Shown: one piece after another, positions 21,001 to 24,000 of the stretch
How positions within the stretch are numbered: position 1 is the first letter of the stretch
Layout: each line of letters starts with the position of its first letter
Virus record (IMG/VR): IMGVR_UViG_2537562190_000018
Length of the DNA stretch: 41,714 bases
Direction: 5' to 3' (one strand)
Source of the DNA: a virus
Lineage: Duplodnaviria; Heunggongvirae; Uroviricota; Caudoviricetes
Program-made: the position numbers

Positions 21001-24000
21001 CCAGCGCAGAAAATGCATTCCGCCCCCGTCCAGAAAGGTGTATTCATGGGCCCGGAAGCCCACAGAAAGCCCCCTGACCAGCCCGGTCTTAATGGCTGCC
21101 CATGCCTCATCCAGTCGGGCTGCCAGTTGCGACGGCATATCCGGTACGGGCTTCACCAGCGTTGCCGTGATTTCCAGCCCTTCCCTGCCCCGACGCACCG
21201 TACACTGGCCTACCGGGCGGGAATGGTCATGCTGCCAGAGAAACGGGATCGCACTGCCGAACTCCGCCCCCTCCGGCTCCAGGATGTCACCATCCCGATC
21301 CGGAGAAGGCGTTGACGCAATCCCGGTGATCACCCGTTCATCCTCACTGAAGGATTTCACCGTCAGCAGGGAACAGGCCCGTTTAAGAGTCACATCAGCC
21401 TCCTGAAAATAAAAAAACCGCCGGAGCGGTTCATGATGGTTACAGGGTGAACAGGGTTATATGAAAAAAACCTCATACGCTTTCTTTTTCGGTTCCGGAT
21501 TCAGGGACATCAGGGACACCGCATTGAAGAGCGCCATCAGCGGGTCAATTTTTCCCCGTCCGCTGGCCTGTTTGGTGATAAGAATGGCGTTACCTTTAGG
21601 CTCCACCCGGGCATTACCGACACACCAGGCCATCAGGGGCTGATCACCGTGAATCAGCACCCCTTCAGCCAGTTTGCGCTCGGTGGTTTTGATGGCCCCG
21701 CCCAGCTTCCAGCCCTGGCTTATCCCCACCACACTCTCATCGGGGATCCCGGCTTCCGCCAGTGAATCCAGAATCTGCCCCACACCTGACGGGTCAATAC
21801 CGATATGATCCAGTAACTCAGCCTCATGAATACGACGCACATACTCCGCCACTTCCGCCGTGTCATCCCCGACCCGACGGACAATCGTCATGTCTCCACA
21901 GGCCACAAAATCCTGAAACCGGGATGCCTCACTCTTCCGTCTGACCACCGCGGTTTCATGCGCCCAGGCATGGCCCCAGCCCAGCCATTCGCGGGTCTCC
22001 CGGTCACGCCCAATCACATACATCCCCAGCAGATCATCCAGCCCTCCGCCGTCAATCCCCACTGTCACCACATCAGCACGCAGCAGGATATCGTCCAGGC
22101 TGATACAACGGCCCTGCTCTTCCCAGAAATCCGCCCCCGCCCAGCGGTCAGAGCGCAGGGCAAGACCAATTTCCACATTGGCGTGTTTTGACATGAAGCC
22201 CCGGAATGTCTCTTCACCGGCTTCCCTGGCTTTTCGATACTCCCGGTACAGAAAGGCCTCATCCACTGAATAGCCGAGATTCGGATTGACCATGGCGAGG
22301 TTTTCCATCAGCAGGTGAGCCCCGCTTTCCACCATTTCAGGAGGGTGTTCAAAGATCACCGGCAGAAAGTGCGGATCATGAATTTTGCCGTCGCGCACAT
22401 CCCGGGCGTACTGCAGTTTCTGTCTGAACACCCCGGCGGGAGGTTCATTCGACTGGGTGGTCGTATACACCACAAACCCTTCCGGGCGGGAGGCAAGGCC
22501 ACCGATGGCTTCACGTAACATGTCCTCCGCCTTGTACTGCTTGCCAAACAGCCACAGCTCATCAATCAGCGTACCCACGGACTTGATACCGGACACCGTA
22601 TTCGGATCGGCTGCCACCACCTTCAGGGTGGTGTCTGTCACCCGGTGGGTGATGGTCCGGATATGTGTCTGCACCTGACAGAGGTCATCCAGATCATCGT
22701 CCCGTCGTACCATATCCCTGGCAGGGTTGAAGGCGTTGGCTGCCACCTCCACTGTCGGGGCCAGAATGGTGTAGCCCGCCGCCTGCCGCCAGTTCAGTAA
22801 CAGTGCAGTCATCATGATCCCTGCGGCCAGCGTGGACTTCGAGTTTTTCTTGGGGATAAGGATAAAAACTTCCTTGATATGGCGTACACCAGTCTGCGCA
22901 TCGTAGGAGCCAAACAGGGCCGCCACCAGGTCAAACACCCACGGTGCACAGGACTCCCCGAACGTCGGGCTACCCGGTGCATCCACAATCCGCAGTTGTT
23001 TAAAAATCGCCAGTGCATGTGCAGCCTGGTCCGGGTAAACCGGAGCCGGAATAATCGACAGCCCCTTTTTCAGGCGCTCTGCCCAGTCCGGGCAGGCAGT
23101 GCTCCATACAGGTATCATCCGTTGCCCTCATTATCGTTATTCACCACCAGTCGGGGTGGCGGTGGCACCGCAAAACGGTTAGCCGCTTTTTTCGCGGCAT
23201 CACCTTTTGCCGATTTTTTCCCGGTATCCCCTTTTTTATGGTGCGTGAACTGCGCCAGTCGCCAGGCCGCATCCAGTGCCAGTTTCGGATCAATTATCAG
23301 GTTTTCCACAAGGATCCTCCCCATTGCTTTTACCGGATCTGGAAGACCGTCTTCCATGTAATCAATACCGGGCAGTGGTGAGAGGTTTTGCCCGTCATCA
23401 GGCGGCAGTGAAACCGGGGAGTTCTTTTCAGCCGGAGGGGCTTCCTTATGGCACTCCTCCGTCTGCATCTTTTTCTGCCGGTAAACAGGAACCTCATCCA
23501 GCTCCACCGTCTCGCATTGTTTACGGGCTATAAACGCGAGCACTTCCGGATCTTTTGCCAGTTGTGAACCTTTAACCCTGGCCGTCTTCGCCGAATAACC
23601 GGCAGCAATGGCTGACGCCGTTTTGTTTTTCCCGGACATGAGCGCCAGCGCAAATTTTCGTTTTTGCGTCGTCAGCACCGTCTCCTCCCGGGTTCAGAAC
23701 TCACTCAGCCGGACATGCTTCAGGCCGTTTTATCCCGCCTTTCATGCCCCCGAATGTTAACTGCTGCCTGGTTAACATTTGCTGAAAAAGCCAGTTAACA
23801 TTTTTTCCGCACAACAAACTGAATAATAAAGATAAAAACCGCAAAAATGCCCGGACAGCCAGTTAACATGTTAACTGCCCTGAAACGGGAATTTTTTCTC
23901 TGCGTGAGAGGGGGGGCGGTGTCCGGGGCGATCGTTTTTTTCGCCGGATGATCCCCCCCGGGGCGGGTCACAGTCCGATGATATCGTCTGCCCTGCCATG

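Follow-up and report, generated by a model that had tools for sequence, protein, structure and literature searches.

The gap between the HNH endonuclease gene and the small terminase gene of this phage appears to hold its packaging site, as judged from sequence and from comparison with relatives whose genome ends have been mapped. Within the window (the whole stretch of 41,714 nucleotides that was analyzed), the assignment of positions 23753-23959 on the minus strand as the cos of an HK97-type, HNH-associated packaging module largely holds. The element carrying this cos is a long-tailed lambdoid prophage of the BP-4795/Stx1 type. We consider it fairly probable that the full explanation is a cos that is cut within its G7 arm, combined with a small terminase protein (TerS) that recognizes GTTAA(C) half-sites. 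HNH-associated cos sites of the HK97 type are an already known kind, and a Stx-type prophage cos is an expected element in an expected place; a few details are new here.

Gene Order and Features of the cos Region

The HNH gene, a 289-bp gap (23679-23967), terS, and terL follow one another on the minus strand, with Pfam matches above the cut-offs. This bears out the HNH-cos-TerS arrangement that an earlier note on this DNA had proposed. In transcriptional order, the HNH gene comes immediately before cos, and almost every related locus compared has an HNH homologue upstream of the cut. The encoded protein is 34% identical (E 8e-10) to the SfV HNH protein, whose gene adjoins the SfV cos, and is barely similar to HK97 gp74 in a pairwise comparison (E 0.078). 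An Rfam search of 23400-24700 gave no match. The features, from high to low coordinates and with distances counted from the cut, are as follows.

24375-24602, divergent: gene for a small DUF3950-domain protein
24333-23968, minus: HNH endonuclease gene, 121 aa (Pfam HNH PF01844, 28.2 bits against a cut-off of 21.4)
23953-23959, minus: upstream G-run (G7 on the coding strand, the plus-strand C7 arm), -51 to -45 from the cut
23919-23924, minus: GGACAC flank directly before the cohesive-end sequence, invariant in 71 distinct E. coli versions
23909-23918, minus: predicted cosN, 10-nt cohesive-end sequence CGCCCCCCCT with 3′ overhang, by identity to the mapped Lys8385Vzw termini
23918/23919 and 23908/23909: predicted nick positions on both sides of CGCCCCCCCT
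23887-23908, minus: left-end proximal block CTCACGCAGAGAAAAAATTCCC, +1 to +22, with an A6 tract at +12 to +17 (23892-23897)
23860-23877: proximal GTTAAC pair, a perfect 18-bp palindrome CAGTTAACATGTTAACTG, +32 to +49 from the new left end
23802-23859, minus: spacer rich in A/T tracts, +50 to +107
23754-23801: distal cluster of three GTTAAC sites, +108 to +155
23678-23115, minus: small terminase gene terS, 187 aa, GTG start at +231 (Terminase_2, PF03592)
23118-21457, minus: large terminase gene terL, 553 aa (Pfam TerL_ATPase and TerL_nuclease)

The Cut Site Is Identical to Mapped Ends of a Related Phage

Lys8385Vzw (MT225100), an induced Stx1 siphophage, was assigned cohesive ends of the 3′ type, with CGCCCCCCCT as the cos sequence, by PhageTerm (PMC7946995). 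Across the cut (slash), the window has ...GGACACCGCCCCCCCT / CTCACGCAGAGAAAAAATTCCCGTTTCAGGGCAGTTAACATGTTAACTGG... on its minus strand, while the Lys8385Vzw record ends with ...GGACACCGCCCCCCCT and starts with CTCACGCAGAGAAAAAATTCCC...CAGTTAACATGTTAACTGG. Thus, the ends mapped in Lys8385Vzw fall at this position and are identical to the window across the junction, including cosN and both flanks through the proximal palindrome. The Lys8385Vzw module also has all five GTTAAC sites and the same HNH-cos-terS-terL order, and the same module is present in BP-4795, 2851, YYZ-2008, 1717, and Sakai Sp6. In E. coli 2013C-4991, identity to the window across this region reaches 99.7%.

More distant relatives agree with this placement. 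The position of cosN is homologous to the 10-nt 3′ end CGCCCCCCAT of Acinetobacter phage fEg-Aba01, which was mapped by PhageTerm and confirmed by a heat/cool gel assay (PMC7354433), and also to the end of the Bcep176 record. The layout of the directly sequenced 10-nt cos of SfI and of the Bcep176 record end is the same as in the window. Comparison with mapped cos sites of related phages, which the earlier note had named as a check, therefore comes out in favor of a cos here. By identity to these mapped ends, terminase is predicted to cut concatemeric DNA on either side of CGCCCCCCCT and leave cohesive ends with 10-nt 3′ overhangs, so that the left end of the packaged DNA would start at 23908 and run toward terS. 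In SfI, HK97, Bcep176, and Pseudomonas phage 5400, the end sequence likewise comes after the trinucleotide GAC. Three natural variants of the cut site occur, and most E. coli copies carry CGCGCCCCCT rather than CGCCCCCCCT.

Two other candidates were set aside. The sequence CCCGCCCC at 23960-23967, likened to the SfI end sequence, was the cut site first considered. It was rejected because E. coli copies vary at this point and the HNH stop codon overlaps it, and the mapped ends lie 45 bp further on. An exact match to SfV ATCGTTTTTTT at 23930-23940 (plus strand) has the wrong orientation relative to the genes, and its conservation does not extend to other lineages.

The cleavage site had previously been proposed to reside in a GC-rich, G7/C7-containing symmetric element. 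Both arms exist (G7 at 23910-23916 and C7 at 23953-23959, with 36 bp between them), and the predicted cut does fall in the G7 arm, at 23909-23918, but not at the center of the dyad. The C7 arm is instead a separate conserved G-run approximately 50 bp upstream of the cut. A G-run is found 42-52 bp upstream of the cut in the E. coli, Salmonella, Acinetobacter, and Pseudomonas relatives, as well as in SfI and HK97, and among E. coli copies it ranges from G5 to G11 and is present in every one. In the window, this conserved G-run (45-51 bp upstream) is part of the cos site, and it may work on the end-of-genome side, in termination.

GTTAAC Repeats Form Two Clusters Between the Cut and terS

GTTAAC occurs 11 times in the window, and five of these copies (23756, 23771, 23794, 23862, and 23870) lie within 120 bp, as had been noted earlier. 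This density (23756-23875) is far beyond chance: when 125-bp spans were counted in 1000 first-order Markov simulations of the window, the maximum in any span was two, and a Poisson scan estimate for the cluster is about 5e-7. Four of the sites share the exact 10-mer CAGTTAACAT, located at 23754 (minus), 23792 (plus), 23860 (plus), and 23868 (minus), and the fifth, at 23769-23778, reads TGGTTAACAT.

The palindrome CAGTTAACATGTTAACTG formed by the proximal pair is the only GTTAA-N3-6-TTAAC match in the window, where 0.04 would be expected. In the distal cluster, the two innermost sites form ATGTTAAC-N9-GTTAACAT. The spacer that separates the clusters is limited to the E. coli (type A) architecture, and the A/T tracts at this spacer are T5 at +62 to +66, T5 at +71 to +75, and A6 at +103 to +108. 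A literature search found no account of GTTAAC repeats or of TerS binding in this phage group, and the available portion of the Lys8385Vzw paper (PMC7946995) does not discuss the repeats.

The Repeats Are Conserved in Related Phages

A set of 71 distinct E. coli versions, drawn from 97 loci, was used to examine invariance. All 30 hexamer positions are invariant, versus 26 varying positions among the other 127 between +1 and +157 (Fisher p = 0.002), a test of limited independence because the E. coli versions are closely related. The nearly invariant block spans roughly -45 to +156 and stops precisely behind the last GTTAAC site; past this repeat, the window departs from every other type A copy. 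When viral contigs were scanned by alignment, only near-identical E. coli loci were recovered, so that the sample grew but its diversity did not. A contig scan with the single TerS protein as query returned no relative.

Relatives from Salmonella, Acinetobacter, Burkholderia, and Pseudomonas carry a GTTAA-type motif at the same distance from the cut, and the motif persists at +30 to +60 in lineages whose TerS proteins are only 27-50% identical. The position of the palindrome is occupied by GTAAACATGTTAAC in Salmonella, by GTTAATGGCKTTAAC in Burkholderia and Pseudomonas, and by AAGTTAAAG direct repeats in Acinetobacter. With the hexamers invariant in E. coli and the motif kept in four other lineages, the earlier expectation that the repeats are conserved in related phages was confirmed. 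Repeated GTTAA motifs are absent in SfV and HK97, whose small terminases match Terminase_4 and no Pfam family, respectively.

The motif overlaps the terS start (ATG TTA AC) in most relatives, and its conservation could therefore be partly attributable to coding. The Acinetobacter repeats lie wholly upstream of terS and thus are not a by-product of coding sequence.

A Model for TerS Docking

TerS matches Terminase_2 (PF03592) over residues 2-57 with 35.9 bits against a cut-off of 26.1. Over residues 5-68, a profile built from TerS relatives finds small-terminase N-terminal DNA-binding domains of the SF6/SPP1 type and of PaP3 (E 8e-4 to 7.5e-3), with the solved structures 4zc3, 3zqp, 2cmp, and 7joq at E 8e-4 to 6e-3. 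We conclude from these matches that TerS is a Terminase_2 family protein with a predicted SF6/SPP1-type N-terminal helix-turn-helix domain. Residues 1-60 are identical to those of BP-4795 TerS, such that the DNA-binding domain and the repeats are both identical between the two phages. Compared with the module of Lys8385Vzw and its kin, the window carries a rare variant of the TerS linker (residues 70-105) and of the 75 bp just upstream of terS (+157 to +230), which brings TerS identity to 79% overall. TerL is 97-100% identical to the proteins of type A loci and 54-60% identical to those of the Burkholderia and Pseudomonas phages.

Given their position, their conservation, and the type of TerS encoded next to them, the GTTAAC repeats are most likely docking sites for the small terminase. 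We propose that a ring-forming Terminase_2 TerS would recognize GTTAA(C) half-sites via its SF6-type helix-turn-helix domain. The palindrome at +32 to +49 would be the primary TerS site and an ancestral element common to all relatives, whereas the three extra sites at +108 to +155 would be peculiar to the E. coli lineage. The spacer between the clusters could let the DNA curve round the TerS ring, thereby placing TerL over the cut site. By analogy with HK97, the TerL nuclease would do the cutting with help from the adjacent HNH protein.

Comparison with Known Packaging Systems

In phage lambda, gpNu1 and IHF bind cosB, which has the arrangement R3-I1-R2-R1. The lambda ends are 12-nt 5′ overhangs, and the phage uses a small terminase of another family (Nu1) that has no HNH partner. 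The window resembles lambda cosB in having several sites, here putative, for the small terminase in mixed orientation between the nicking site and terS, with a spacer between proximal and distal groups. It departs from a lambda-type cosB in that the IHF consensus WATCAANNNNTTR is absent from 23679-23967 at up to one mismatch (two-mismatch matches occur at chance rate), the ends of the mapped relatives are 10-nt 3′ overhangs, and TerS belongs to Terminase_2.

Closer parallels are found among HNH-associated systems. SfV and SfI share with the window the HNH-cos-terS order, a 10-nt C-rich end TGCCCGCCCC after GGAC, and an upstream G-rich inverted copy. They differ in having a T7 tract rather than A6 after the cut and a single TTTAAC with no repeat cluster, and SfV TerS belongs to Terminase_4.

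Phage fEg-Aba01 has GGACAC followed by its 10-nt end CGCCCCCCAT, with one base different, then an A8 tract and TTCCC that can be likened to the A-tract block of the window. It also has GTTAA-type repeats at +30 to +62, a Terminase_2 TerS, and an upstream HNH gene. In contrast to the window, its repeats are three direct AAGTTAAA copies about 13 bp apart, and it has no inverted GTTAAC pairs, no distal cluster, and no DUF3950 gene. Metagenomic loci of this Acinetobacter type (type C), whose cos region matches fEg-Aba01, encode TerS proteins 27-28% identical and TerL proteins 53-54% identical to those of the window.

In HK97, the terminase is assisted by the HNH protein gp74 (Kala et al. 2014). 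Like the window, HK97 has its HNH gene directly ahead of cos, terS followed by terL on the downstream side, and a 10-nt 3′ overhang. In both, there is a G-run at 40-50 bp upstream of the cut, the end sequence is preceded by GAC, and an A/T tract is found at most 30 bp past the cut. The two systems differ in several respects. HK97 TerS has neither a helix-turn-helix domain nor a Pfam match, uses one 15-bp site, and has DNA threaded through its channel (PMC11331095). The window has five GTTAAC sites over 125 bp and a Terminase_2 TerS with a predicted helix-turn-helix domain, and the HNH proteins are barely alignable.

Alternative Roles for the Repeats and the Dyad

Even with the cut as given above, TerS might dock on the A-tract/CCC block at +8 to +22, leaving the GTTAAC copies as a relic that contributes little or nothing to packaging. 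With an insertion of about 190 bp in the E. coli lineage, the ancestral terS start (ATGTTAAC) would then have stayed behind and been duplicated. Directly after the cut, each of the seven lineages compared has an A- or T-tract and then CCC, and the HK97 small terminase binds an A-tract site at +15 to +29 (PMC11331095); the A6 tract of the window lies within the roughly 30 bp downstream of the cut where HK97 has its tract. Furthermore, ATGTTAAC in Salmonella relatives is the terS start codon plus two codons, at +40, and a 13-nt direct repeat ATGTTAACTGGCT at +40 and +108 of the window looks like a duplication. However, the TerS proteins show no homology: HK97 gp1 matches no Pfam family and has no defined DNA-binding domain, whereas the window protein is a Terminase_2 member. 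The hexamers are also invariant amid varying surroundings, and a noncoding upstream half-site is kept in Salmonella, Burkholderia, and Pseudomonas, in addition to the entirely noncoding repeats of Acinetobacter. Finally, a rare TTA codon is retained in GC-rich hosts; in the GC-rich Pseudomonas phage 5400, TTA accounts for only 2 of 123 Leu codons, and one of these is terS codon 3, where it forms TTAAC. We regard A-tract docking, with the repeats as a relic, as unlikely.

Less probable still is an operator role for all the GTTAAC sites, or for the distal three alone, by which another DNA-binding protein would regulate expression at the HNH-terS junction. The candidate is the DUF3950 protein, which looks from its sequence like a ribbon-helix-helix DNA binder and whose gene is confined to E. 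coli type A loci, as are the three distal repeats. Inverted and palindromic repeats are typical of operators. However, lineages without DUF3950 have the proximal motif equally far from the cut, and DUF3950 identity ranges from 71 to 100% among loci with identical repeats. Promoter-like and terminator-like sites are at chance level, with none on the coding strand within the HNH-terS gap, and late genes of lambdoid phages of this kind are read through from upstream. These points make an operator function quite improbable.

That the G7...C7 dyad folds as a hairpin or cruciform and is the true recognition structure for cleavage seems very improbable. In its favor, the minimum-energy fold does pair G7 with C7, and all lineages compared have a G-run ahead of a C-rich cut site. 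Against it, the stability does not exceed that of shuffled sequences (z = -0.70, with 56 of 200 shuffles doing equally well or better), conservation between lineages is lacking for the stretch that separates the arms, and the end sequences of HK97 and Bcep176 are not C-runs able to pair with the G-run.

Implications for Terminase Supply and DNA Transfer

If GTTAAC docking is the correct reading, a bolder extension can be considered, although we hold it to be rather doubtful. GTTAA-N4/5-TTAAC might be a deeply conserved TerS recognition site, from Acinetobacter to E. coli, that was autoregulatory and was later uncoupled in E. coli Stx phages. Where the motif coincides with the start codon of terS, terminase bound at cos could throttle translation or transcription of this gene, and packaging would be coupled to terminase supply by autoregulation in most lineages. 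In the Stx phages of E. coli, this coupling would have been lost when terS moved about 190 bp further downstream, and the site would have been multiplied to five. The five-site arrangement would then be a lambda-like multisite cosB reached by convergence.

The packaging module is present in 1283 of 5426 complete E. coli genomes (about a quarter), where a single genome can have as many as seven copies, and many Shiga-toxin prophages carry it. Because the module is so widespread, this cos decides what DNA these phages package and transfer, including DNA of defective prophages, and possibly of satellites, with a compatible site. With the cut site, its variants, and the likely TerS sites in hand, a defined fragment is available for transduction assays, and correct genome ends can be set for these prophages. 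The site also provides a Terminase_2-type cos system to set beside the HK97 and lambda models.

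Packaging genes and the probable cut site

An earlier note proposed a packaging region between the HNH endonuclease and small terminase genes, with GTTAAC repeats as terminase-binding sites and a G7/C7 dyad as the cleavage site. Our analysis supports the reading of this region as a packaging site, and the surrounding genes occur in the order proposed:

24333..23968, minus strand: HNH endonuclease gene
289 bp: gap between the HNH gene and terS
23678..23115, minus strand: terS, small terminase gene, Pfam Terminase_2
23118..21457, minus strand: terL, large terminase gene
21393..19456, minus strand: prohead protease-capsid fusion gene

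For Lys8385Vzw, an induced phage whose virion DNA was sequenced, PMC7946995 reports 3′ cohesive ends determined by PhageTerm, with cos CGCCCCCCCT at the genome end. The record of this phage closes with ...GGACACCGCCCCCCCT and opens with CTCACGCAGAGAAAAAATTCCCGTTTCAGGGCAGTTAACATGTTAACTGG, and the minus strand of the window matches it exactly across the end junction. By this identity to mapped ends, the region is shown to be a cos that would be cut flanking CGCCCCCCCT. The predicted cohesive end is 23918..23909 (plus strand, AGGGGGGGCG), and the packaged left end would be 23908 (hereafter +1, with negative numbers upstream of the cut), heading toward terS. The proposal of cleavage in the GC-rich dyad holds for the G7 arm, but not for the centre of the dyad. 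A hairpin pairing G7 with C7 gains no stability over shuffled sequence.

The position is also supported by three further phages. The record of Acinetobacter phage fEg-Aba01 ends with ...GGACACCGCCCCCCAT and marks the final 10 nt as a 3′ cohesive end, which was determined by PhageTerm and confirmed with a heat/cool restriction-fragment assay (PMC7354433). Acinetobacter-type metagenomic loci matching the fEg-Aba01 cos region encode TerL proteins 53-54% identical to that of the window. The record of Burkholderia phage Bcep176 ends at the homologous point, between CGCACGTTCC and CTCACGCGCAG. Virion ends of Shigella phage SfI, sequenced directly, gave a 10-nt cos, TGCCCGCCCC, which has GGAC just before it and is flanked by an HNH gene and terS. 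The element is an HK97-type, HNH-associated cos with 10-nt 3′ ends, which is a known kind, and a published cut site already exists for the near-identical phage Lys8385Vzw.

The fusion gene (19456-21393, minus strand) is a single 645-aa frame with Peptidase_S78 prohead protease and Phage_capsid major capsid domains. It lies directly 3′ of terL, and the portal gene is absent between the two. An Rfam search of the region gave zero family matches, and promoter and terminator signals around the gap did not rise above chance.

GTTAAC repeats and conserved architecture

GTTAAC begins at 23756, 23771, 23794, 23862, and 23870, and the remaining 41.6 kb of the window holds just six more. When the window was simulated 1000 times with a first-order Markov model, 125-bp spans contained two copies at most. 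The cluster of five sites (23756-23875) is confirmed, as are the G7 (23910-23916) and C7 (23953-23959) runs. An exact copy of the 10-mer CAGTTAACAT is found at four of the five sites, with two copies per orientation. The proximal pair (+32..+49) forms a perfect 18-bp palindrome (23860-23877), the sole match to GTTAA-N3-6-TTAAC in the window, and an A/T-tract-rich spacer separates it from the three distal sites. The 13-nt sequence ATGTTAACTGGCT is directly repeated at +40 and +108, which points to duplication as the origin of the distal copies (+108..+155). The IHF consensus was not found in the cos region, and our literature search found no description of the repeats of this phage group.

Relatives were gathered by scanning viral contigs for the 20-mer across the cut, and the resulting loci were set against phage records. 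Conservation of the 20-mer is by construction, but the following features lie outside the search pattern. A G-run precedes the cut by 42-52 bp in relatives from E. coli, Salmonella, Acinetobacter, and Pseudomonas, as well as in SfI and HK97. An A- or T-tract and then CCC occur no more than ~22 bp past the cut in all compared lineages, again including SfI and HK97. Finally, a GTTAA-type motif is located at +30..+60 across the Terminase_2 lineages compared.

GTTAA-type motifs by lineage
E. coli: palindrome GTTAACATGTTAAC
Salmonella (FSL SP-016, many IMG/VR loci): GTAAACATGTTAAC
Burkholderia and Pseudomonas: GTTAATGGCKTTAAC
Acinetobacter: AAGTTAAAG, two to three direct copies

The small terminases of these lineages are all Terminase_2 proteins, 27-50% identical to the window TerS. 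In contrast, repeated GTTAA motifs are absent from SfV, whose TerS belongs to Terminase_4, and from HK97, whose TerS has no Pfam match.

In some Salmonella-type loci (L013, L024, L032, L059), ~290 additional bp (-416 to -60) separate the HNH gene from cos. This sequence resembles HK97 upstream of its right end (CATTTCAATGTGAATGA...CATCA.GGC.GGGGGGG), a hint that cos may exchange its upstream part as a separate module.

Probable small-terminase binding sites

The window TerS matches Pfam Terminase_2 above the cut-off. A profile built from family members found in the relatives matches the SF6/SPP1-type N-terminal DNA-binding domains 4zc3, 3zqp, and 2cmp, and PaP3 7joq (residues 5-68, E 8e-4 to 6e-3). 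In SF6 and lambda, this helix-turn-helix (HTH)-type domain reportedly suffices to bind DNA (summarized in PMC11331095). Given the position and conservation of the motif and its co-occurrence with the protein family, we propose that GTTAA(C) half-sites are bound by the HTH domains of TerS. In this scheme, the palindrome at +32..+49 would serve as the core site, the three distal sites would be accessory, and the A/T-tract spacer may let the DNA curve around the TerS ring. Judging from the order of the genes and from HK97, the staggered cut would be made by TerL and the HNH protein.

The main rival possibility, which we consider rather unlikely, is that TerS recognizes the A-tract element shared by all compared lineages. 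HK97 TerS recognizes a single A-tract site at +15..+29, but it lacks such an HTH domain, and the DNA is threaded through its channel (PMC11331095). A divergent 75-aa ORF that matches DUF3950 (E 3e-17) lies just upstream of the HNH gene (24375-24602, plus strand). By eye, its product resembles a ribbon-helix-helix DNA binder. That the GTTAAC sites are its operators is less likely, given that the gene, found among the loci compared only in those of E. coli architecture (type A), is absent from lineages retaining the proximal motif, and that this mosaic protein ranges from 71 to 100% identity among loci with identical repeats.

In Salmonella, Burkholderia, and Pseudomonas, terS begins within the motif: its first codons, ATG (GCN) TTA ACN, encoding M(A)LT, make up the downstream half. 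The upstream half-site is noncoding yet retained, and the Acinetobacter repeats are entirely noncoding. Moreover, TTA accounts for only 2 of 123 Leu codons (four genes) in Pseudomonas phage 5400 (62% G+C), one of which is terS codon 3. These observations argue that the DNA sequence of the motif, beyond the encoded protein, is under selection. The E. coli lineage starts terS at +231, 190 bp more downstream, with GTG CTG ACG. Despite this shift, its palindrome has kept the ancestral spacing to the cut, and three added GTTAAC copies follow the spacer at +108..+155.

The Lys8385Vzw annotation of terS (185-793) begins at an ATG and gives 202 aa, whereas the GTG that aligns with the start in relatives lies 45 nt further downstream. 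An M-L-T-x-Q-K-R-K start is common to all relatives, and the Pfam match of the Lys8385Vzw protein begins only at residue 17. The annotated start is probably too early.

Conservation and distribution among prophages

Among 97 type A loci, representing 71 distinct sequences, hexamer positions are invariant (30/30), whereas the rest of +1 to +157 comprises 127 positions, 26 of them variable (one-sided Fisher p = 0.002). Because these sequences are related, the invariance is supportive but not decisive. A nearly invariant block spans about -45 to +156, and the G-run (-51..-45) is present in every copy with variable length, so we take 23753-23959 as the probable functional unit. Sequence upstream of the G-run is variable. 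G-run length ranges from about G5 to G11 in otherwise near-identical copies, a spread that may reflect either true slippage or sequencing error in a homopolymer.

A rare variant, common to the window and one IMG/VR locus (L055) only, differs by ~20% from all other type A copies. It occupies 23679-23752 (+157..+230) and reaches TerS linker residues 70-105. Because this switch starts exactly after the last GTTAAC site, the functional cos block may end at a recombination boundary. Over the predicted DNA-binding domain, TerS residues 1-60, the window and BP-4795 do not differ, nor do they differ in the repeats.

The region is a very common prophage packaging module. About 93 records, from long-tailed Stx1, Stx2c, and Stx2a prophages such as BP-4795, 2851, YYZ-2008, and 1717, match it at 91-97% identity, and 1283 of the 5426 complete E. 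coli genomes carry it. The cohesive end is polymorphic among the 71 distinct versions, with CGCGCCCCCT occurring 40 times, CGCCCCCCGT 16 times, and the CGCCCCCCCT of the window 13 times. Because a genome can carry the module in up to seven places, differing end sequences may coexist in one cell.

In PPompW prophages (PPompW_EH2201, LC567828.1, 2772-4230), ISEc20 (IS110-family) is annotated from the G-run just upstream of the cut (window ~23957). The HNH and lysis genes are missing, since tRNA genes and Q directly follow ISEc20. These copies keep cos, terS, and terL in the absence of the HNH partner.

What this comparison adds is modest: probable small-terminase sites that are conserved from Acinetobacter to E. 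coli, that in most lineages overlap the start of terS, and that have multiplied within the Stx-phage lineage of E. coli.
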